This document shows positions 1,939 through 16,639 of a DNA stretch of 22,317 nt, one piece after another (position 1 is the first letter of the stretch; every line of letters starts with the position of its first letter). Below the pieces are notes generated by a model that saw nothing but the letters and a program-made list of their open reading frames with translations, was not told where the DNA came from and did no database searches. The position numbers and the translations under genes were made by a program. Source of the stretch: an uncultured Methanosarcinales archaeon (GTDB taxonomy: Archaea > Nanobdellota > Nanobdellia > Woesearchaeales > CAYVYK01); contig CAYVYK010000003.1 of NCBI GenBank assembly GCA_964455675.1, positions 124,001 through 146,317 of the forward strand, given 5' to 3'.

Positions 1939-4900
1939 CTACACACCACCCCTTGCGCGCCCGAGAACTTCTTTCACCTGCGCCAGATGGGCGGCGAACG
2001 GCTCAAGGTACTCCCGCAAATGCGTCACACACGCACTCCTTGCTGGAGCAAGACTTGGAGACTTCCACTGCACGGCAGAAATCCTTCCTTCAACATTCAT
2101 CCATCGCACACCATGCTCTGGAATCAGGACCGATCCCAAACGGAACTGCAACTTCTGAAGATCCTCTCTTGTATCCTGCAATCTCACAAGGAACGCATGA
2201 TTCTGACGGAAAAGCTCCTCGATCGGACGAGGATCCTCGCGACCTCCATTCTGATTTGCCCGGAGAGCTTTGATATACGCGCTCAGGACCTTGTCCGCAT
2301 CACTCAATGCTTGGCGCAATTCCATAATCTGCAATTCCCTTAAGAGCACATCGGGCTTTCGCTGCATCAGTTTCTCAAATAGATCCTTCTTCTTTTGAAT
2401 AGTGGCATCATCCCACTGACGCATCGCGAGCACGGGCGCAGACACTCGCTCAATTCTTTCAAGTAATTCATCTGGAAGAGTTGGAGACACCTCTCCATAA
2501 GCCGTAACGTCACCAACTTCAAACTCAATAAAATTATGATCAAAGTAACTATGAGCATCCGTTTTTAGCACGTACAACTCCAGACGGTACATTCCTGGAT
2601 CTGCATGCAAGGGAACAGTGAACGTGAAGTTGATGTAGAACCTGCGATCCAATGAACGCTCAACAGGCTTATTGAGAGGGATATCAGTTGAACGGAACAC
2701 ACTGAATGGAATCCATGAACCTTCACGTCCAGACACCTCGCCCTTCCCTTCCCAATGCATCAGTGAGCCATCAGACCGCACGATCTGCGCGAGCACAAAT
2801 CCCCTTGGTTTGCCTTGCGCTTCCACCCTAAACGAGAGCGGATACGCGTGACTTGCTGAACCTCTCTGATATGGTATCCTGTACCGCGCACCAAGATTTG
2901 TGTCGTTTGGATGTTGATGGAATAATCCGCGCTGTCCCTTGTCAAGCCACGGGTTGATGAGAACCCACTGCTGTGAGGGATGATCAGTCACAATTATCTT
3001 CCGTCTCTTCTGCGCAATTTGTTGATCCCTGTGGAACACATTCACGATCACCCAATTCTCACCTGCTGCAAGTTCCTCAGCCTTTTTCATGAAGGCAATA
3101 TCCTCGCTCTCCGCATTCCATTGCGATTCATCCTGAACTCGGTCATGACCTGCTGTATACCACTTATATGAGAGGAATTTGTCCGGCGGATATATCTGAA
3201 TCTTCAAGACTTCGCTGCTCCCTGTCCGATACTCGTCCTCGCCAACCTCACCGTTGATACTGATCCGTGCATTATCAGCCTCGCTTGCGCGAGACTCTTT
3301 CATTATCGGCCGTATCTTCTGCGCAATGGGACGATTATTCTGATAAACTTCCATTACGATATACATTCTTCCGTCAGGAATTTCACGGCCTGGCAATCCA
3401 AACGAAAGCTCCCTACTCTGCTCTTCCCAGGTGCTACGTCTACGCGCTTGTTCAGGAGCAATCAGGTACCAAATACAGCGGACCGGAGCATTCGGAGGAT
3501 ACAGCTGCACGCGCATTTCCTCCATTGGTTTGAGCGAATACTCATCACTACCCACATCACCATTAATACTAATCGCAAGGTTGTCCTTCCCACGAGACTT
3601 GACCAGAATCGGGCGCTCAATGTGCGCTATCTGCTGATCCCTTTGGAATGCATCAACTATCACAAACGTTCTTCCGGCCTCTAAGGTGTTTGTTGCCTTC
3701 GCGAACTTAATGTCAAAGCTCTCAACCTTCCAGGAATTCTGATCGGACTTGCTGTGTTCAGGGACCGTATACCACTTGTACGAGAGATACTTGTCCGGCG
3801 GATAGATCTGGATGTTTAACTCCCTCTCATTTCCCACGACAAACTCATCAGCGCTCACGTCACCGTTGATGCTGATGCCAGCATTCGCTTGATTTTCCAC
3901 TTCTTTTCGGACCAATCTCGATTTTCGTGTCAGGAGAGTGCCGTGATGATAGACTTCTACGACAACAGCATTCTCACCGCTCGGCCAGCGGGGCACATCG
4001 ATCGTGAACTCCGGATCATTACTTACAGAATCTCCAAGGTTCTCGTCGGCGATGCGATCAGGAGGAACAATGAACCAGCGGCACGATACGTTTCTCCCTC
4101 TTGGCGGATATAGCTGAACCCTGAGCTCTTCCTCATTACTAATCCGGAATTCATCCTCACTCACGTCACCATTAATACTGATCTGAATAGCTGGCGGCCC
4201 TCGCTCTCTCCGCACTGCACGCATTACTCTTGCGATGCGAGTGTTCAATTGGAACACATCAACAATAACATAATTTCTTCCCTCAGGCCAGTCTGCCACT
4301 TTCATCTCGAAGAGCTGATCATTACTCACATTATTACTAGGACTCTCATCATTCATATTCTCTGGAGGGACAATATACCACCTGCACGAATACGGCCCTC
4401 TAGGCGGATAGAGCTGAACGCGAAGATCGCGCTCACTACCGATGACATACTCATCATCACTAACATCACCATTCACACTGATCTGCAACGCCGGCCCCGC
4501 AGTACGGAATAGGATGGAACACGGATCGGGGCGCACCAATCTCTCGCCAATTCTTGCCCGGAAATAGAACCAGAGCCTGCAGTTTCTCGTCATACGCATT
4601 CTTCGGGCTAATGCTTGCGTATCACGGCCGGAGAGAGCGTACAACAATTCCCCAGCAGTACCTCGATCCGATTGCGCGACCCTGCGTACGCTCAATGCAA
4701 TCCGGACTGGACGTCCGCCCTCGAGAAACACAAATGCTGCATCATCGAGGATCAACTGATTCGTGTTGATTGGTATTAGATAAAATCGTAACGATTCCCC
4801 AGGACGAGAATTGTCAGTTTCGTCTCCTGCATCATTAACTGCCTGTATTCTAAACGAAGGCTCACCAGGACGCGGGGGTTCACCTGGAGTATTCTCTACT

Positions 4901-5739
4901 GGAGGCTCTCCCGGAACTTCTGGAGGCCTATCAGCATCATCTCCGCCGATTTCCCTGCGTGGCCTTCTCCACCAATCACGCAACCTTCGCCACCATGGTT
5001 CTCGAGCAGGCCTTTCCGGTTCATCAACCTCTTCCCGGTCGCGGTTAAGCCAATTCCTGAACCTATTCCAAAGACCTCTCCCTCTGTTGCCCTGCGTTCC
5101 TCCCCTCGATAGACCAGACATTGCCAGGGCGAGAAGTGCCGCAAGAAGGAGCGCAAGCGCAAGGTATTTCCACCAGTCACCAATGCCGCCAGCTTCACTC
5201 GTGAGCCAGGCAAGGTACCCAAGGAGCGCAAGAGCCGCAGCTCCAAGCGCAATCCAAAGCCACTTGCCACCAAACTGATCCTTAAACGGGAAGTACAGGA
5301 GACTAAACAAAGTCGCCGCCGTCAGGAGTGCGCCCCAAAGACCTAGCGGCACAAGAACGGATTTGATAGCGGTTTCGACGCCGCGGAAACTGACGAGGTA
5401 AAAAATACCGTAAGCGCTCATGAGACCAAGCACGACAGCAAGAGCTTTGCCTGGCTTTGTTAGTCTGCCTCCAGAGAATCTTCCCTGCGTTTGACTTCCA
5501 ATCCCTTGACCCTCACGGAACGCAGGAATAAATCGAAGCGTCGCGGCGTAAATCGCTGTGAACGCCGCAAACGTTCCGATAAGGAGGGTGGAGACCATGA
5601 ATGTCGTACTTTGCGTTGAAGCAACAAGCATATTACCTGCAGTCGAGAAAATACCTGGAACCGTGAGCGCGTACGCACTCCTTGCCATGGCAGCGCCAAG
5701 CGCCGCCATCATGATCAACTTACGAGCGGCGCTTGCCAT
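1939..5739 (-). CDS. Large multi-pass membrane protein with tandem beta-rich (Ig-like) repeats and C-terminal coiled coil
   Basis: 1266 aa with SD AAGGAG before the ATG. Signal-like N-terminus and about 5 hydrophobic segments within residues ~1-210, an Arg/Trp/Pro-rich linker, five ISING(D/E)V...Q(L/I)YPP...W(Y/F) repeats, and a helical C-terminus. Confidence 0.85.
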   Translation of the reverse strand: MASAARKLIMMAALGAAMARSAYALTVPGIFSTAGNMLVASTQSTTFMVSTLLIGTFAAFTAIYAATLRFIPAFREGQGIGSQTQGRFSGGRLTKPGKALAVVLGLMSAYGIFYLVSFRGVETAIKSVLVPLGLWGALLTAATLFSLLYFPFKDQFGGKWLWIALGAAALALLGYLAWLTSEAGGIGDWWKYLALALLLAALLALAMSGLSRGGTQGNRGRGLWNRFRNWLNRDREEVDEPERPAREPWWRRLRDWWRRPRREIGGDDADRPPEVPGEPPVENTPGEPPRPGEPSFRIQAVNDAGDETDNSRPGESLRFYLIPINTNQLILDDAAFVFLEGGRPVRIALSVRRVAQSDRGTAGELLYALSGRDTQALARRMRMTRNCRLWFYFRARIGERLVRPDPCSILFRTAGPALQISVNGDVSDDEYVIGSERDLRVQLYPPRGPYSCRWYIVPPENMNDESPSNNVSNDQLFEMKVADWPEGRNYVIVDVFQLNTRIARVMRAVRRERGPPAIQISINGDVSEDEFRISNEEELRVQLYPPRGRNVSCRWFIVPPDRIADENLGDSVSNDPEFTIDVPRWPSGENAVVVEVYHHGTLLTRKSRLVRKEVENQANAGISINGDVSADEFVVGNERELNIQIYPPDKYLSYKWYTVPEHSKSDQNSWKVESFDIKFAKATNTLEAGRTFVIVDAFQRDQQIAHIERPILVKSRGKDNLAISINGDVGSDEYSLKPMEEMRVQLYPPNAPVRCIWYLIAPEQARRRSTWEEQSRELSFGLPGREIPDGRMYIVMEVYQNNRPIAQKIRPIMKESRASEADNARISINGEVGEDEYRTGSSEVLKIQIYPPDKFLSYKWYTAGHDRVQDESQWNAESEDIAFMKKAEELAAGENWVIVNVFHRDQQIAQKRRKIIVTDHPSQQWVLINPWLDKGQRGLFHQHPNDTNLGARYRIPYQRGSASHAYPLSFRVEAQGKPRGFVLAQIVRSDGSLMHWEGKGEVSGREGSWIPFSVFRSTDIPLNKPVERSLDRRFYINFTFTVPLHADPGMYRLELYVLKTDAHSYFDHNFIEFEVGDVTAYGEVSPTLPDELLERIERVSAPVLAMRQWDDATIQKKKDLFEKLMQRKPDVLLRELQIMELRQALSDADKVLSAYIKALRANQNGGREDPRPIEELFRQNHAFLVRLQDTREDLQKLQFRLGSVLIPEHGVRWMNVEGRISAVQWKSPSLAPARSACVTHLREYLEPFAAHLAQVKEVLGRARGGV
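2985..4490 (-). repeat. Five tandem ~100-aa intragenic repeats (~300-309 bp period)
   Basis: Units begin near 4488 (LQISVNGDV), 4188 (IQISINGDV), 3879 (GISINGDV), 3576 (AISINGDV) and 3267 (RISINGEV). Each contains DE(Y/F), Q(L/I)YPP, W(Y/F) and a V(I/V)V(D/E/N)V(F/Y)-like strand. Confidence 0.9.
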
Positions 5740-9502: not shown

Positions 9503-12340
9503 ATGGAAGGACAACCACTTTCTCGATTTACATCACTGCCATGGATTATTTCACTTGTTGTTATTGTGTCGTTTGCGGTACTCGCGATGGCACATGACAA
9601 AAGCATTGAAGCAGCACGATCGCCAAGCGCATTCGCGGTCGCTGGAGCGGAGATGCTTAGTATCGGCGAACCAACGAAGAAGACAACACAAACACTGCGC
9701 AGCATGACACTATCATCCCCAGATAAAGGAGGCGACGCACCAAGGTCCTTGTGCGGAAATGGTATCTGTGAGGAAGATGAAACCACAGAAACCTGCCCTG
9801 TTGACTGTCCGATGACACCCGAGTGCGGGAATGGAATCTGCGAACCACCAGAGGATCCAGAAACTTGTTCAGACTGCCTTGAGGACATCGTATGCGGTGA
9901 TGCAGTCTGCGAGTTTCCCGAAACTGCCGAGACTTGCCCTGAGGATTGTGCACCATCAGTGTTTGAGTGCAACGATCATACCTATTTGGACGCGCCAGGG
10001 GTTCGACCGGTTCTCGGAGATGCGCTCAACGTTGCTGTCAGTGAACTTGGAGAAGATGATTTGCCATTCCTCCTTGCGGATGGATGGGTTGAGCAGAACG
10101 AAGGGTCTGCCTTCCCGTATGAGCAGACTTTAGATATCAGTGGGTGCGCTAGATTTAGCTTTGGCACACCAGAAATCTTTGACAGTCGTACTCCGATCGT
10201 CCACTTGGACACAACATCATGCACAAGTTCAAATCCCATGTATACATACACCATGGATTTCGTGAACGCAAACCTTTCAGACTCTCCAGGTCGAGACATC
10301 AGGATTCTTGGACGAACCTATCTAGTTTCTGCAATCCCAACGGATGTATCATTCTCGAAACTCACGCTCTGGAGAGACTTCGCTTCTGACATCGTTAATG
10401 TAGGTGAGGAACGCGTTATCAACCATGTCACCATCCAGGTCCTTGGAGCGAACACTGATGAAGGCACAGCAACTATTGTTGTGGATGGAGAGACCATGCA
10501 AGTAGAAGAAGGAGACCACATAATCTCGTCCTTCTCTGATATGCATGTTTTCGTTAAGGATATCTTCCTGCAGACGGTACCCGTCCCCACAGCAGCAGTA
10601 GAATTCATCGTCTTTGCGGATGAGATCGTTCTGCAAAATGGCGAGATGGTAGTGGTGAATGGCGAGTCCTACGATGGCACTCGTGCGACATTCACAAGCT
10701 CATCCATCCTTGATAAAATCCAGGTCGCCCTGTTCCCGAACGAGCTCGGAATCCCTGGCGGACTTGAGGACGTTGAATACCTCGAAGCTGGAAACTATCC
10801 GATGCCCGACGCAGAAATGCACTTCAACCCTCTCTTTGACCCTGTGTGGATGTCACTTTTGTCTGACTTTGTTGGATTATCACAAATGGTGGATGATGAA
10901 AGTCGGGACATCATTACGTACCAGGGAACCGGATCAAAAGTGCAGATGAGCTTTGCGAACAAGGCAGAGGTTATTGCACAAGTCGACTTTAACTTTGAAG
11001 CGACAGAGGAAGGAAATCTCGGAAAGCTCAAGTATGGAACCAAATGGCTCCACTGGGATGAAAACGATGGAGATAATGTCACGGTTCCTGAGGATGACTA
11101 CTTCCTCCTCAATATGAACCATAATCCGACGTACACCTACGTGGTAAAGTTCACTTCGTACAGCAGTACCCCTGGAAGCGAGAAATTTGACTGTGCTGTT
11201 GTCGGCCTGCCGGGAGATCCCTGCGACTACATCGATGAACATCACGGAAAGATCACGCTTGGAGGAAAAACTATTGATGTGCTTATCTGGACATTTGGAC
11301 CAGACCCAACCCTCTCCATCCGAGCATTTGGACCCTACTTCCAAGGCGGTATCGGAAAGGAAATCTACACGATGAATGACGCCAAAATCACTCTTCAGAG
11401 AGGGAACCTGTACAGCTGGGGATACTCGATCAACAGGACGTCCATGATACAAGATGCGGAGCGAGCTGATTACACAAGCGATGAAGGTGAAATCATCACG
11501 GTGCAGATGCGATATGATCCATCCGAGGGAGCCGCAGAGCTGTACACCTATTGGTTTGAAGGAACATCGTTCCCACCAGTGCCTGACATGGACACGCACT
11601 CGCTGCAGGGCATGACTGATTTTGGAACATACGCAGTGCTTGACGCAGACACGTACAAGTCAGCATACCTCTACGTTCCGGATGGAGAAGTCAACATGCT
11701 ATTTGAGTTTAAGAGCGATATCTCCACAGATTGCAGCCCACCATACCAGTGCGTGGCGCATGAATGTGTCATGCCACCGCCATCCATCAAGTACCGTGTT
11801 TTTGTGACAAACAATTCCTGGACTGGCAATCTTGGAGGACTTGCCGGAGCGGACCAGAAGTGTGCCCAGGCGGCTACAAATGCAGGCCTTCGAGGAATAT
11901 GGAAAGCATGGATCAGTGACGACTGCAAGGATGCGAAGGAACGTCTCTATCACTCGACGTTCCCCTACGTGCGCCTTGATGGCGTTACCATCGCTAAGAA
12001 CTGGGATGATCTCACGGATGGGTCGCTTTCTTCCGCAATTCTCGTGACCGAATACGGACAGAATGCCACTGATTTCAGCAATGTCTGGACTGCCACGGAC
12101 GCGACCGGAACTGCCATACCAAGTCAATTCTATTGTGGAGGCTGGACAACACCATCTGGCCGCGGCGGAATTGGAGTATGGGATCATACAGACTCGGGAT
12201 GGACATACTATGGTGCTGTATCATGTGATGCACCAGGAAGGCTTTACTGCTTTGAACAGCCAAAGCTGCAGCCAATTCCCATGCCTGTGCCCCATGAACT
12301 CGTATCAGAGTCAGTTCCGAAGGCATACGCAGTTGAGTAA
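9503..12340 (+). CDS. Surface protein: N-terminal TM/signal, Cys-rich repeats, S-layer-like acidic beta-rich body, C-terminal DUF1554 (endostatin-like) domain
   Basis: Hydrophobic N-terminus and three CG(N/D)xxCE...ETCxxDC-type repeats. The acidic middle (LPFLLADG...YEQTL...YTYTMDF) resembles archaeal S-layer proteins. The C-terminus VFVT...GNLGGLAGADQKC...WKAWIS...VWT...LYCFEQ is characteristic of DUF1554. Confidence 0.8.
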   Translation: MEGQPLSRFTSLPWIISLVVIVSFAVLAMAHDKSIEAARSPSAFAVAGAEMLSIGEPTKKTTQTLRSMTLSSPDKGGDAPRSLCGNGICEEDETTETCPVDCPMTPECGNGICEPPEDPETCSDCLEDIVCGDAVCEFPETAETCPEDCAPSVFECNDHTYLDAPGVRPVLGDALNVAVSELGEDDLPFLLADGWVEQNEGSAFPYEQTLDISGCARFSFGTPEIFDSRTPIVHLDTTSCTSSNPMYTYTMDFVNANLSDSPGRDIRILGRTYLVSAIPTDVSFSKLTLWRDFASDIVNVGEERVINHVTIQVLGANTDEGTATIVVDGETMQVEEGDHIISSFSDMHVFVKDIFLQTVPVPTAAVEFIVFADEIVLQNGEMVVVNGESYDGTRATFTSSSILDKIQVALFPNELGIPGGLEDVEYLEAGNYPMPDAEMHFNPLFDPVWMSLLSDFVGLSQMVDDESRDIITYQGTGSKVQMSFANKAEVIAQVDFNFEATEEGNLGKLKYGTKWLHWDENDGDNVTVPEDDYFLLNMNHNPTYTYVVKFTSYSSTPGSEKFDCAVVGLPGDPCDYIDEHHGKITLGGKTIDVLIWTFGPDPTLSIRAFGPYFQGGIGKEIYTMNDAKITLQRGNLYSWGYSINRTSMIQDAERADYTSDEGEIITVQMRYDPSEGAAELYTYWFEGTSFPPVPDMDTHSLQGMTDFGTYAVLDADTYKSAYLYVPDGEVNMLFEFKSDISTDCSPPYQCVAHECVMPPPSIKYRVFVTNNSWTGNLGGLAGADQKCAQAATNAGLRGIWKAWISDDCKDAKERLYHSTFPYVRLDGVTIAKNWDDLTDGSLSSAILVTEYGQNATDFSNVWTATDATGTAIPSQFYCGGWTTPSGRGGIGVWDHTDSGWTYYGAVSCDAPGRLYCFEQPKLQPIPMPVPHELVSESVPKAYAVE
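9752..9949 (+). repeat. Three Cys-rich ~23-aa repeats
   Basis: CGNGICEEDETTETCPVDC, CGNGICEPPEDPETCSDC and CGDAVCEFPETAETCPEDC. Confidence 0.9.
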
Positions 12341-12344
12341 ACAA

Positions 12345-12395
12345 CCCTGCCTTTGCAGGGATCTTTCTTCTTTTTTCCATTCTATCACTTTTTTT
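12345..12395 (+). terminator. Hairpin plus T-rich tract terminator
   Basis: CCCTGC-CTTT-GCAGGG directly after the stop codon, followed by pyrimidine/T runs. Confidence 0.55.
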
Positions 12396-12412
12396 ACGAC
12401 ATACTCGCTAAG

Positions 12413-12420
12413 TTTATAAA
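12413..12420 (+). promoter_or_regulatory. TATA box driving the repeat/tRNA locus
   Basis: TTTATAAA about 25 bp upstream of the first GGGCGTGTAGCATA copy at 12446. No comparable TATA box directly precedes the real tRNA at 12659. Confidence 0.65.
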
Positions 12421-12445
12421 CGGACAATTCTTTGCACAGATCATT

Positions 12446-12601
12446 GGGCGTGTAGCATACGCTGAAATCCTATGGATTTCTGGTCGCTACCCGCCTCGAG
12501 CATAGAACGTGCGGTAGCAATTTTGTTGCTGCGCATTGTACCCACCAATGGGCGTGTAGCATACGCAGAAATGCTTCGCATTTCTGGTCGCTCCACGCCC
12601 A
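12446..12601 (+). repeat. Two 51-bp palindromic direct repeats, each beginning with the 5' 14 nt of tRNA-Arg
   Basis: Copy 1 at 12446-12496 is GGGCGTGTAGCATACGCTGAAATCCTATGGATTTCTGGTCGCTACCCGCCT. Copy 2 at 12550-12600 is GGGCGTGTAGCATACGCAGAAATGCTTCGCATTTCTGGTCGCTCCACGCCC. Confidence 0.9.
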
Positions 12602-12658
12602 ATGGATAGAAATGGTTCAAGGACAACGAAGTTGTCCGAACTGGAAAACAAAAAGATT

Positions 12659-12778
12659 GGGCGTGTAGCATAACCTGGATAGTGCGGCCGGCTTCGGTGA
12701 TCGCTTGCAGTGAGGCAACGCGGAGCAAAAGCGATTGCAAGTAACCGGCTGATGGGGGTTCAAATCCTCCCACGCTCG
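12659..12778 (+). tRNA. tRNA-Arg(UCG) with a 46-nt intron at canonical position 37/38 (12698-12743)
   Basis: Acceptor GGGCGTG/CACGCTC with discriminator G. D stem GCAT/GTGC with GGA (A20, the Arg identity element). Anticodon stem GCCGG/CCGGC with loop CT-TCG-G|A. T arm GGGGG-TTCAAAT-CCTCC. No encoded CCA; a T-tract follows. Confidence 0.92.
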
Positions 12779-12839
12779 CTTTATTTTTCTATGCATAGGT
12801 TTTTAAAGAACAGTTCTTCGTAGTTTTCAAGGTGTAAGG

Positions 12840-13814
12840 TTGCTGTACAGCATTAGAAAAGAGGTGGTGGGATCGTTCCTCTCGGCAGTCCAGAAGGACA
12901 ACCAGCTGTATGCGCCTGTGCGTCAAGGAACTGTTCGTTTCTCAATGATAGAGGATCCGAATACGATATGCCTTGATGAGAACACCGTCATGCCGCTCAA
13001 ACAATTCTTCTTTCCGCAGCGTAGTGTGATCTTTTCCTTTCAGGGAACAAAAATCACTATCCCCAGGGAAAACATACCTTCACGCGTGTTCTTCGGCGTG
13101 CGAAGATGCGACCTGAATGCAATCAGGCATCAGGACATGATGTACATGGAGAAATTCAAGGATCCAATCTATATAGCACGACGGCAGGCAAGCGTTCTCA
13201 TCGGGTACCACTGCCCTATGCCGCCAAGCAAGTACTGCTTCTGTGGTTCCCATAATCTTGGGGACTATTACGATCTTATGTTTTTCGACCGAGGATCAGA
13301 GTATCATGTCCACATCGGTTCACTGCGTGGAGAAGAGTTCTTCAAAAAGTATACGAATCACTTCACGCCTATCAATAAAGAGATCACCGAACAAGATAAA
13401 AAAATACCTGGCTCTGACCGACTGAAACGAACGAACATCAAAGACCTTTACCATCATCCTGACTGGATACCGAAAGGAGTGGACCGGTGCATCAGCTGTG
13501 CGGCATGTACAACACTATGCCCAACATGCTATTGCTCAGAAATGCACGATGAGCAACACGTGGGAGCAACAAAGATCGGGAACCGAGTACGGACATGGAG
13601 CTCATGCCAGCTCAAGGAATTCACAAAAGTTGCAGGAGGCCATACATTCCGCGAAAGCCGAGAGGGAAGATTCAAGCACCGTATCTACCACCAGATGGAA
13701 TACTTCAAACAAAAGAACGGTGTGACACTCTGCGTTGGATGCGGACGCTGCATCCAGTCATGCCCAACGGACATCGACTGGGTGGACATCATCAACAAGA
13801 TGGGTGACAGATGA
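12840..13814 (+). CDS. hydB: Group 3b sulfhydrogenase beta subunit (4Fe-4S dicluster, AsrA-like)
   Basis: GVRRCD, CFC, CISCAACTTLCPTCYC, WSSC and CVGCGRCIQSCP. TTG start, with TTTTTAAA about 35 bp upstream. Confidence 0.9.
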   Translation: MLYSIRKEVVGSFLSAVQKDNQLYAPVRQGTVRFSMIEDPNTICLDENTVMPLKQFFFPQRSVIFSFQGTKITIPRENIPSRVFFGVRRCDLNAIRHQDMMYMEKFKDPIYIARRQASVLIGYHCPMPPSKYCFCGSHNLGDYYDLMFFDRGSEYHVHIGSLRGEEFFKKYTNHFTPINKEITEQDKKIPGSDRLKRTNIKDLYHHPDWIPKGVDRCISCAACTTLCPTCYCSEMHDEQHVGATKIGNRVRTWSSCQLKEFTKVAGGHTFRESREGRFKHRIYHQMEYFKQKNGVTLCVGCGRCIQSCPTDIDWVDIINKMGDR

Positions 13815-14617
13815 TGGCTGCGCGATCGAAACTCATCCCCTGGCCCGTGAAGATCATCAATCGGGTTCAAGAAAGCGAAACGAACTTCACGATAACCCTT
13901 GACGCCAAACTCAAGCATGATCCAGGCCAATTCGTGCAAGTCGGAATCCCAGGAGTTGGAGAATCACCAATCTCGTTTGCATCATACTCAAGCAAGTTCG
14001 TAAAACTCAATATCAGCATGGTCGGAAAAGTCACGATTGCGCTCTCAAAACTGAAAGTCGGTGAAACCGTCCTCATCCGAGGACCATATGGGCACGGCTA
14101 TCCCCTTGACAAACTCTACGGAAACACCGTGTATTTCGTCGGGGGTGGATGCGGCATCGCACCATTGAAAGGAGCGATCGACTACGTCGAACACTATCGA
14201 GAAAAATATCGGGATGTCGTGCTTTTCCTTGGATACCGAAGCCCGAACGATATTCTCTTCAAGAAAGAAATCGAGGAATGGAGAACTAAATACCATCTCA
14301 CAGTGACCGTCGACAAAAATCCCCCAGGAACCTGCTACGAAGGTGCAGTTGGCTTTGTGACGGATGCAGTGAAAGCCGCAAGCATGAATACTGAAGGGAG
14401 CATTGCGATCGTGTGCGGACCACCCATGATGATGAAAAACGCGATCATCGCACTCAAGAGCAAAGGATTCCGGGATGAGCAGATCTTCCTGAGCCAAGAA
14501 CGGCTCATGTACTGTGGCATCGGCGTATGCTGCCACTGCATGATCCAAGACAAGTTCTGCTGCGAGGACGGGCCGGTCTTCAGGTATGATGAAATCAAGG
14601 GGTATGAGTTTGACTAA
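13811..14617 (+). CDS. hydG: Group 3b sulfhydrogenase gamma subunit (FAD/NAD(P)-binding, 2Fe-2S)
   Basis: PGQF, GESPIS, RGPYGHG, GGGCGIAP, CGPPMM and ERLMYCGIGVCCHC...CEDGPVF. ATGA overlap with the upstream gene. Confidence 0.92.
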   Translation: MMAARSKLIPWPVKIINRVQESETNFTITLDAKLKHDPGQFVQVGIPGVGESPISFASYSSKFVKLNISMVGKVTIALSKLKVGETVLIRGPYGHGYPLDKLYGNTVYFVGGGCGIAPLKGAIDYVEHYREKYRDVVLFLGYRSPNDILFKKEIEEWRTKYHLTVTVDKNPPGTCYEGAVGFVTDAVKAASMNTEGSIAIVCGPPMMMKNAIIALKSKGFRDEQIFLSQERLMYCGIGVCCHCMIQDKFCCEDGPVFRYDEIKGYEFD

Positions 14618-15365
14618 ACCAAGAATAGGCATATTCGGCCTTACCGGATGCGCAGGATGCCAGCTCAGCATCATCTTCAACGAAGATGAGATTCTCAATT
14701 TGCTTGATGTCATCGACATTCGCGCATTCCCATTCATTAAAGGAAACAACGACGAGGAAAACTTTGACATCGTGTTCATGGAAGGACTCGTGGCAGACAA
14801 AGAAGACCTTGAAACACTCAAGAAAATACGTGGCAAGACGAAAAAGCTCGTCGCTCTGGGAGCATGCGCACACACGGGATGCATCCCTGCGTATCGCAAC
14901 TACACTATGCCATCACCCTACGAACACCTCTACTACAATAAACGCGAACGGATCAAGGATGTAAAACCCTCTGCGATCAACGAACATGTCACCGTTGATT
15001 ACGTCATCCCCGGGTGTCCGCCCGACAAAAAGGAAATTCTCGCATTCATCCAGGCAGTTGCCCACGGCATCGAGCCAAAATCCTACACGAGCCCAGTATG
15101 CGTGGAGTGCAGGCGCAACAACAACGAATGCCTGCTCATCAAAGGAAAACCGTGCCTTGGGCCCATCACACGCGGAGGATGCAATTCCGTATGTGTGAAC
15201 GGAAAACTCGAGTGCTGGGGCTGTCGCGGACCGACGGATGACGCGAACTTCGCGCTCATGGTACGCCTGCTGCGGCAAAAAGGGTATAGCGATGACTTCA
15301 TCAGGAAGCGGATGAGAAGCTTTGCAGGAGTCCTTTATCCAGAAGACAAGGTGCTTTTCCCATGA
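14604..15365 (+). CDS. hydD: [NiFe] hydrogenase group 3b small (delta) subunit
   Basis: GCAGCQ, EG, GACAHTG, PGCPP, VCVEC, CLGPIT and CWGCRG. Start reassigned to MSLTKP at 14604, after SD AGGGGT. Confidence 0.93.
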   Translation: MSLTKPRIGIFGLTGCAGCQLSIIFNEDEILNLLDVIDIRAFPFIKGNNDEENFDIVFMEGLVADKEDLETLKKIRGKTKKLVALGACAHTGCIPAYRNYTMPSPYEHLYYNKRERIKDVKPSAINEHVTVDYVIPGCPPDKKEILAFIQAVAHGIEPKSYTSPVCVECRRNNNECLLIKGKPCLGPITRGGCNSVCVNGKLECWGCRGPTDDANFALMVRLLRQKGYSDDFIRKRMRSFAGVLYPEDKVLFP

Positions 15366-16639
15366 CTGAAATAACACTCAACCACATCACGAAGATTGAG
15401 GGGCATGCAACGCTCACGCTCAAGATCGAGAATGGCAAAGTCACGACGTGCGAGCTTGGCTCGATTGAAGGAAGCAGATATTTTGAAGGGATGCTCGTCG
15501 GCCGCATGTACCATGAGGCAAACGAAATCACGTCACGGATCTGCGGCATCTGCAGCGCGGCGCACGTGCTTTCCGCAACAATGGCGATCGAACGGGCACT
15601 CAACATCCAATGCTCACCACAGACAGTGGAACTACGCAAACTCCTTGCGCTCGCAGAACGCATCAGAAGCCACGCGACACACCTCTACTTCCTTGCGCTG
15701 CCTGACTATCTCGGATATGAATCTGCCCTCGCAATGCTCCCAAAGTACAAGAAGGAAGTTGGTGCTGCGCTACGCATGATGAAGGTTGGAAACGAAATGA
15801 CGCGGATCGTTGGAGGAAGAGACCTTCACCCTGTCAGTATCACGATCGGTGGATTCCTCAAGGTTCCGAAAAAACAGGAACTCCTCATGCTTATGAGGCA
15901 GCTCGAAGGAATCAAGAGCGACGCGCTCGCCACATGCGAACTATTCCTCGGCCTAAAATTTCCCGACATGACCTTGCCTGGCGCAACATGGTTCTCCCTT
16001 ACTGACCCTGTGCAATACGCAATCATCGATGGAAGTGTTGCGTCAGGAAACGAGCACTTTGCGCCGCAGCAATTCCACGATTTCTTCAAAGAATACCATG
16101 AGGAGTATTCAACGGCAAACTTCGTCGTACGAGATGGCAAGACCTATTTTGTCGGAGCACTAGCGCGTATCAATAACAGCAGGGGCAAGCTATACACCGA
16201 TGCGCGGAACATGCTCGACCGCAGCGGAATCTTGTTTCCGTCCACAAATCCATACGCAAACAACATCTGCCAGGCAGTCGAACTAGTGCATTCAATCGAC
16301 CATGCCATACAAATATGCCGAGATCTCAACGTACAGCAAGAAGAGCCAGTAAAATATGCGATCAAATCAGGCCACGGCATCCATGTCACGGAAGCACCGC
16401 GAGGACTCAACTGGCACGAATACACTATCGATGACAAAGGACTAATCACGCAAGCAAACATCGTGACGCCAACAGCGCAGAATCTGCGAAGCATGAACGA
16501 TGATATACGAAGGCTCCTCTCACCAGAACTCCTTCGGAAATCCAAAGATGAAGTGGTCCTTGAGGTAGAGAAGCTGATACGTAACTATGATCCATGCTTC
16601 TCGTGCTCAACACATTTCCTCAAGGTCAAATGGCTCTAG
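15362..16639 (+). CDS. hydA: [NiFe] hydrogenase group 3b large (alpha) subunit
   Basis: KIEGH, L1 motif RICGICSAAH, EAPRG, TPT, and L2 motif DPCFSCSTH, followed by a 7-aa cleavable tail FLKVKWL. Confidence 0.96.
   Translation: MTEITLNHITKIEGHATLTLKIENGKVTTCELGSIEGSRYFEGMLVGRMYHEANEITSRICGICSAAHVLSATMAIERALNIQCSPQTVELRKLLALAERIRSHATHLYFLALPDYLGYESALAMLPKYKKEVGAALRMMKVGNEMTRIVGGRDLHPVSITIGGFLKVPKKQELLMLMRQLEGIKSDALATCELFLGLKFPDMTLPGATWFSLTDPVQYAIIDGSVASGNEHFAPQQFHDFFKEYHEEYSTANFVVRDGKTYFVGALARINNSRGKLYTDARNMLDRSGILFPSTNPYANNICQAVELVHSIDHAIQICRDLNVQQEEPVKYAIKSGHGIHVTEAPRGLNWHEYTIDDKGLITQANIVTPTAQNLRSMNDDIRRLLSPELLRKSKDEVVLEVEKLIRNYDPCFSCSTHFLKVKWL

Follow-up and report, generated by a model that had tools for sequence, protein, structure and literature searches.

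Gene-free hairpin cassettes upstream of a tRNA-Arg(TCG) gene and at other tRNA ends of an archaeal genome

The tRNA-Arg(TCG) locus

The window analyzed here (the whole stretch of 22,317 nt) comes from an archaeon that is alone in its family and whose assembled genome comprises 1.72 Mb (99% complete). An Rfam scan of the window revealed one tRNA gene at 12659–12778 (plus strand; RF00005, 44.9 bits) and nothing else. The gene, which is intact and has orthologues, contains a 46-nt intron (12698–12743, plus strand) at position 37/38, with an imperfect bulge-helix-bulge motif read from the sequence. ARAGORN parsed the intron-containing tRNA by an alternative cut, giving the anticodon TCT; since intron-less orthologues across the order read TCG, we assigned the gene to tRNA-Arg(TCG) with the intron as given above. 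A splicing endonuclease gene is present in this genome.

On its upstream side the locus is flanked by a gene (9503–12340, plus strand) for a secreted-looking protein of 945 aa with a weak DUF1554/endostatin-like C-terminus, followed by the terminator-like hairpin of this gene (12345–12360, plus strand), which lies outside the cassette array described below. Downstream is a sulfhydrogenase-type NiFe hydrogenase operon (12840–16639, plus strand). No integrase or cargo gene was found in or beside the insertion. Elsewhere in the window, a minus-strand gene (1939–5739) encodes a protein of 1266 aa that contains internal repeats and, at its N-terminus, a membrane region, and for which Pfam and NCBIfam gave no match.

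The tRNA gene is preceded by two hairpin cassettes, each followed by a linker, all read on the plus strand. The TATA box of the gene (12413–12420, plus strand) is located 33 nt upstream of the first cassette, and the transcript would start near position 12446; the same distance from TATA box to start is found at 28 of the 43 tRNA calls of this genome, which places the cassettes between the promoter and the gene. Cassette 1 is composed of a copy of tRNA nucleotides 1–12, i.e. the target duplication (12446–12457), a core consisting of TACGC, a variable inner stem-loop and GGTC (12458–12485), and an anti-arm that forms an imperfect complement of tRNA nucleotides 11 to 1 (12486–12496). Linker 1 (12497–12549; 53 nt) contains a hairpin of its own at approx. 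12509–12534 (z −2.2). Cassette 2 repeats this organization: a copy of tRNA nucleotides 1–12 (12550–12561), a core with TACGC, an inner stem-loop (GAA triloop on the minus strand) and GGTC (12562–12589), and an anti-arm (12590–12600). It is followed by linker 2 (12601–12658; 58 nt), also with its own hairpin (approx. 12614–12642; z −3.2).

An initial annotation of this sequence had recognized the order TATA box, repeats, spacers and tRNA, which we confirmed, the TATA box beginning at 12413. It had also reported a 14-nt sequence occurring three times (at 12446, 12550 and 12659; spacing 104 and 109), and these three occurrences are indeed present. The true duplication comprises only 12 nt, however, and the final TA belongs to the cassette itself: in 11 of the 47 family units analyzed below the cassette carries T where the tRNA has C13, and the length of the duplication is therefore fixed at 12 nt.

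Repeats 1 (12446–12496) and 2 (12550–12600) are identical at 43 of 51 positions, the 8 differences including compensatory ones. Both fold, as had been proposed, into long hairpins with a compensated inner stem (z −3.6 for repeat 1 and −6.9 for repeat 2; 0 of 200 shuffles folded as well). The mimic of an acceptor stem noted at their base is perfect only in repeat 2, whose 7-bp mimic is the sole perfect one among the 47 family units; in repeat 1 it contains a T-C mismatch and a terminal G-T pair. The spacers, taken for unique sequences, are present at the reported lengths but are themselves the hairpin-forming linkers described above. Their suggested comparison with phages yielded best matches with E values of 1–5 only, in a phage collection that may miss the viruses of this host, and a comparison of the cassette with Rfam families gave only a chance miRNA match (E 1.5). 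A role of the upstream copy as a spliced 5′ exon, or as a piece of a split or permuted tRNA, was rejected; by inspection, the copy has no complementary central helix (no bulge-helix-bulge), and the downstream tRNA is complete.

Related cassettes in this genome and across the order

The search for the core beside other tRNAs, proposed in the initial annotation, was successful: the core of the Arg(TCG) locus is found again twice before tRNA-Ser(TGA), before tRNA-Thr(CGT) and, at the end of a contig, before a copy of Thr type. Duplications of tRNA ends of at least 11 nt were detected at 20 of the 43 ARAGORN calls of this genome (8 at the 5′ end and 14 at the 3′ end, 2 of them at both), of which calls one or two are probably false. 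The TATA boxes of three genes, Arg(TCG), Thr(CGT) and Glu(TTC), are shifted by exactly the inserted length. The inner stems at many loci share a common A-rich/T-rich palindrome.

An unbiased scan of the genome for direct-inverted-direct arrangements returned 23 regions, 14 of which touch a tRNA call, against a backdrop of tRNA neighbourhoods that make up 1.4% of the genome; two shuffled genomes gave 0 and 1 regions. The rest comprises two regions that continue tRNA arrays (16 in total with tRNA), three belonging to an unrelated array and four other repeats. The same scan revealed structured repeat regions away from tRNAs at C1:35,946–36,171 and C5:49,057–49,417. Many contig ends and two N gaps lie within or next to tRNA genes that have cassette arrays (C1, C2, C3, C8, C12, C15, C16, C20, C22 and C25), and our cassette counts are therefore lower bounds.

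A second, longer type of cassette, in which the promoter is duplicated too, was observed in this genome before tRNA-Tyr and tRNA-Ser(CGA) (C8:1–174, C2:130–250 and C20:10,890–11,010). Its sequence resembles, by eye, the 98-nt intron of tRNA-Glu(CTC), a likeness which suggests that cassettes may become introns.

In other genomes, a pattern search matched 9 of 201, two of these by chance (the control gave 1 match). In an alignment of 14 units 88% of the cells were paired, and covariation reached 0.43 compared with 0.14 in shuffled alignments (0 of 500 as high), a value inflated by the relatedness of the units. The covariance model built from this alignment (R1) matched 28 of 150 genomes of the order, or 26 after two false matches had been dropped; these tallies include G111, G120 and G131, none of which is a carrier. 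Inspection of 43 R1 matches placed 38 before a tRNA 5′ end, with 3 ambiguous and 2 false. The model also matched 21 of 150 genomes in a sample of the phylum, all from the same order.

As R1 was trained on units with GCA-type D-stems, the preference of the matches for Ser, Thr and Arg tRNAs is partly built in. In an unbiased set (73 tRNAs from 10 carrier genomes), 5′ duplications were found in 2 of 13 GCA-type and 3 of 59 other tRNAs, and 3′ duplications in 17 of 69 tRNAs compared with 10 of 1274 for foreign ends.

The distribution of the cassettes is patchy, and their copy number varies from one to three or more, as became apparent from the comparison of related genomes that had been called for. 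The orthologous Arg(TCG) genes compared have no cassette; G071, G078 and G109 carry one. Contigs at the Arg(TCG) and Ser(TGA) loci (depth 2–15, from which rare variants are dropped) revealed no polymorphism between empty and filled sites and no excision junction; a single backward contig joint at the Ser(TGA) locus is a reflection of the 3′ array. Exact-pattern scans of a genome collection with the repeat, and of metagenomes with the tRNA 5′ half, gave no match, and thus no near strain with an empty site. A loose version of the core pattern was swamped by chance, with one real cassette among 241 genome and viral loci.

Some individual loci deserve mention. In G078, a member of another family, tRNA-Arg(TCG) has the same first 14 nt and a cassette of its own at both ends (loci L339 and L432). 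In G009 (L029:1430–1590) there are tandem 54-nt palindromic units with the inner stem-loop of repeat 2 and no tRNA nearby. A contig titled Methanosarcinales (L065), possibly mis-binned, contains a cassette identical in the compared part to that of G079.

In order to describe copy, arm and core, 49 units were collected by regular expression, of which 47 with a tRNA downstream were retained (2 at contig ends were dropped). Copy and tRNA disagree at 6 of 564 positions (the copy being approx. 99% exact), and the arm is unpaired at 116 of 517 (approx. 22%), mainly at positions 2 and 8. At positions 3–6 the arm tracks its own target, forming 2.71 of 4 possible pairs compared with 1.29 in shuffled assignments (maximum 1.62). 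Of 9 informative wobble positions in the 3′ arm, 7 complement the 5′ copy, 2 fit neither strand and none follows the 3′ strand of the tRNA. Where copy and tRNA disagree, the arm agrees with the tRNA in 4 of 6 cases and with the copy in none, while a G004 unit outside this set shows the reverse; in G026 and G173, where the copies differ, it is the downstream copy that pairs with the acceptor strand.

The core hardly changes between tRNAs or across 29 genomes, and it has no local template. Inner stems and linkers, on the other hand, vary highly between units. The direct repeat runs upstream of position +1 by a mean of 2.0 nt compared with 0.8 nt in shuffles. An extension of the arm into the upstream flank was rejected (1.43 compared with 1.37, p 0.35), the 4-nt extension seen in repeat 2 being regarded as a chance match.

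The putative folded strand and comparison with known systems

The mismatches within the stems were typed on the transcribed strand of 58 5′ units, which had been picked with Watson-Crick-only filters. Isolated mismatches of the outer stem were C-T (42), T-T (6), C-C (2), A-C (8), G-T (6) and purine-purine (4), and those of the inner stem C-T (8), A-C (3), G-T (2) and T-T (1), counts which overstate the independence of the units because these share ancestry. Among 27 genomes, pyrimidine pairs outnumbered purine pairs in 21 and were outnumbered in 2. The bias was weaker without positions 2 and 8 (C-T 14, A-C 8, G-T 6), and G-T and A-C taken alone were balanced (6 and 8). The template strand was the more stable one in 54 of 58 units with DNA parameters and in 49 of 58 with RNA parameters.

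The tRNA acceptor stems used as a control contained only G-U among their non-Watson-Crick pairs (39 of 39), a control that is itself biased toward G-U by scoring. The mismatch bias of the 5′ units, equivalent to purine-purine oppositions on the non-transcribed strand, and the small number of G-U pairs suggest folded DNA, and not processed RNA, as the structured form of the cassettes.

One and the same core points toward the tRNA at both ends of the gene, lying on the transcribed strand before 5′ ends and antisense behind 3′ ends; the inverted core was found behind 4 of the 194 tRNAs examined (in G004 and G078). On the sense strand of 14 3′-end units, 11 of them from this genome, the mismatches were A-G (9), G-G (2), G-T (2) and C-T (1). 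The structure therefore appears to be tied to the orientation of the cassette and not to transcription, as judged from the mismatch types of 5′ and 3′ units together with the inversion of the core. The 3′ polarity was not replicated in the unbiased 73-tRNA set (A-G 2, G-T 2, C-T 2, A-C 1), where the outward strand was the more stable one in 3 of 10 cases.

We compared the cassettes with several known systems, as these are described in the available parts of the sources cited. At tRNA-Thr of Caldiarchaeum subterraneum, and in att duplications of pNOB8 type, a 5′ tRNA fragment and an insertion are located upstream of an intact tRNA (PMC3293823), and att duplications resembling the cassette layout have been reviewed (PMC4033280). 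There too the fragment repeats the intact downstream tRNA, the insertion lies between the two and the tRNA is regenerated. However, the Caldiarchaeum insertion is 1.8 kb long and encodes a putative recombinase (PMC3293823), whereas the cassettes are gene-free and of approx. 40–200 nt. In addition, they contain the target in inverted form, can follow one another in arrays and are found at the 5′ as well as the 3′ ends of tRNAs, unlike the att site as described in that source.

Integron attC sites are hairpins closed by conserved R boxes; by inspection, the outer stem of the cassettes is instead a copy of the tRNA that varies with the target. CTX-type IMEX are integrated at dif by host Xer recombinases. 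The CTX phage starts from a single strand that is folded and mismatched, of which one strand exchange brings about the integration (PMC3442271). With CTX-type IMEX and attC, the latter also in archaeal arrays (PMC3442271, PMC9668308), the cassettes have in common a folded, mismatched single strand as the proposed substrate and tandem stacking; a strand asymmetry like that of these systems was strong in the 5′ units and in the 3′ units of this genome, but did not recur in the unbiased 3′ set. They differ from the published descriptions in that the target is a tRNA end and not dif or attI, the stem changes with each target and there is no cargo gene. Moreover, no integron integrase above the cut-off is encoded in this genome, which does contain a XerA-like gene.

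Short, gene-free imperfect palindromes of variable copy number, presumably mobilized in trans, are also typical of REP/BIME elements with RAYT and of MITEs (PMC3733652). Unlike REP elements in the part of this literature available, the cassettes have no fixed GTAG/CGTC tag (the corresponding position reads GTAG, GTGG or GTCG depending on the tRNA, GTAG here belonging to the tRNA copy), and they show target duplication, a strict location at tRNA ends and no association with RAYT. They differ from MITEs in having no terminal inverted repeats, the inverted arm being internal and paired with the target copy.

A CRISPR array consists of a promoter followed by repeat-spacer units. The Arg(TCG) locus, with a promoter and then two alternating hairpin repeats and spacers, resembles such arrays and those of TIGR systems (PMC12045711, as far as described in the available part). 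In contrast to both, however, its repeats are derived from tRNA and specific to the locus, and its spacers are self-paired without a foreign match. A cas1 gene, expected of a CRISPR system or casposon, was not found in the genome, and the flanking proteins gave no match to the Nop domain (Tas) of TIGR systems.

The cassette family fails a defining test for each of the systems compared (att, REP, attC arrays and TIGR). We found no description of it in a literature search that covered sources outside subscription journals, and the available parts of two 2026 preprints on non-coding clusters do not mention it.

Proposed mechanism and rival explanations

The repeats at the Arg(TCG) locus belong to a family of hairpin cassettes without genes that are located at tRNA ends, whose terminal 11–12 bases they duplicate. 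With little more confidence than doubt, we lean toward regarding them as non-autonomous, self-targeted cassettes that insert as single-stranded DNA with the help of a putative trans-acting recombinase or nuclease. In the strand reading outward, arm and copy would fold together and so imitate the tRNA end in double-stranded form. One strand might then be exchanged with the real tRNA end, and replication would fix the insertion. Such an exchange would renew the exact copy, whereas the arm, not being exchanged, would retain its mismatches. Repeated events could pile up cassettes, as at the Arg(TCG) locus. The tRNA would be left whole. Since it is the downstream gene that is intact and this genome encodes RNase P RNA, RNase P is predicted to trim the 213-nt leader, and the cassettes would then be nearly neutral passengers.

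This model keeps, in outline, to the initial suggestion that a very small palindromic element, not autonomous, restores the 5′ end of the tRNA, given the homologues at other tRNAs here and in 26 of 150 genomes and the arm matched to its own tRNA. The search for a mobilizing enzyme gave no candidate: no match to Y1 transposase, Cas1 or reverse transcriptase was found in this genome (99% complete), and Y1 shows no enrichment among carriers (12 of 26 compared with 44 of 124 non-carriers, p 0.37). Tyrosine recombinases are near-universal (129 of 150 genomes) and thus uninformative, as is RNase P as a permissive factor (137 of 150). The only tyrosine recombinase of this genome, encoded on another contig (L033:1447–2073, C5), is a XerA-like protein of 208 aa, seemingly without the N-terminal domain, which scores below the cut-offs for archaeal XerA (183 against 220, its best match) and integron integrase (TIGR02249; 124.6 bits against 265). 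The only GIY-YIG match is a frame of 530 aa, a size that we take to be that of UvrC.

An IS110-like protein was rejected as the mobilizer, being present in 2 of 150 genomes; the loops of the array around its gene match tRNA regions no better than shuffles do (9.2 compared with 9.7 nt). The protein (576 aa; IS110/IS116 Transposase_20, E 1.9e-12, no N-terminal DEDD match) is found at L373:838–2568 and L375:3300–6500 (C5, approx. 85,300–88,500). The array consists of units of approx. 180 nt, four on each side of the gene, with three conserved GC-rich stems around variable loops of 27–35 nt, and from its sequence it looks like a guide array of the bridge-RNA or TIGR stem-loop type.

The specificity of the arm implies that each cassette is built for its tRNA, which simple copy-and-paste leaves unexplained. 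Since the insertion model does not account for the origin of such an arm, local synthesis by fold-back stays alive as a rival, which we consider unlikely but the most serious one: a polymerase would fold back twice at a structured tRNA end to produce a direct-inverted-direct triplication, and a structure-specific host factor or selection would shape the junction hairpins, with no mobile donor. It would account well for an arm that complements the local 5′ strand (7 of 9) and tracks its own target, for the extension of the direct repeat upstream of +1 (2.0 compared with 0.8 nt), for the very variable inner stems and linkers, and for the failure to find a mobilizer among Y1, Cas1, reverse transcriptase and IS110-like proteins. 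It does not account for a core that is nearly invariant in 29 genomes without being locally templated. Errors in the arm should, moreover, reach the second copy, yet the copies are 99% exact and 22% of the arm positions unpaired, and the strand-asymmetric, transversion-type mismatches are unlike neutral decay. It is improbable, in our judgement, that the cassettes are DNA elements maintained by the host, such as decoy att sites or protein-binding sites that shield tRNA genes from viruses and plasmids or regulate them. Strong tRNA specificity, a conserved core with covariation and the A-rich/T-rich palindrome common to many inner stems would fit such a role, as would the known use of tRNA genes as integration targets (described in the available part of PMC3293823); the presence of cassettes in only 26 of 150 genomes, a copy number of one to three or more, orthologous tRNAs without cassettes and the failure to identify a cognate protein speak against it.

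Slightly less credible still is the second proposal of the initial annotation, a co-transcribed array whose tRNA-like stems are cut by RNase P and RNase Z to release functional small RNAs. In its favour, the TATA box stands upstream of the array at the usual distance from the start, so that transcription is probable; the two repeats, as RNA, have good predicted folds, and the genome encodes RNase P RNA. This proposal was nevertheless not supported: a perfect acceptor mimic occurs in 1 of 47 units and the T-arm is absent, G-U pairs are rare on the transcribed strand (6 of 68, compared with 39 of 39 in the G-U-biased control of tRNA acceptor stems), the opposite strand folds better even with RNA parameters (49 of 58), the core is antisense behind 3′ ends, and there is neither an Rfam family nor a phage match of the spacers. 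An assembly artefact or a chance local duplication is very improbable. Contigs do break inside the hairpin of repeat 2 (those of X1 span 11800–12603 and 12583–13400, and no single contig crosses the inner hairpin with 31 nt on either side), and many contigs and gaps of the assembly end at tRNAs. As to the support across the junctions that had been asked for, an independent contig from another study (X3) is identical to 12342–12547, with 0 differences, and so covers the promoter, cassette 1 and linker 1. The repeats, however, differ from each other at 8 of 51 positions with compensation, and the family recurs in 26 of 150 genomes.

Returning to insertion of folded single strands, a further step, which we put forward tentatively and with considerable doubt, would be a self-programmed DNA insertion system of DPANN archaea, in which the fold-back arm serves as the target address, the cassette recreates on one strand a duplex replica of whichever tRNA end it addresses, and a host or viral recombinase reads the small structural core rather than a target of fixed sequence. 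Such a system, if real, would provide a recombination site that can be retargeted and a means of remodelling tRNA genes.

Mobile DNA lands mainly at the ends of tRNA genes, and the elements known so far come with an integrase and a fixed attachment site. In this genome, close to half of the tRNA calls are associated with cassettes that contain no gene and in which a core of 9–10 nt stays fixed although the stem differs with the target, and the Arg(TCG) locus is one site of this widespread family of self-targeted cassettes, which is apparently unpublished. If the substrate is folded single-stranded DNA, a recombinase that reads structure and has a changeable target would be mechanistically new and possibly useful; if the cassettes are merely tolerated by-products of replication, they still mark an unusual repair pathway. 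The family accounts for the breaking of DPANN assemblies at tRNAs, and it provides a testable handle on the origin of tRNA fragments, leaders and perhaps introns in archaea.
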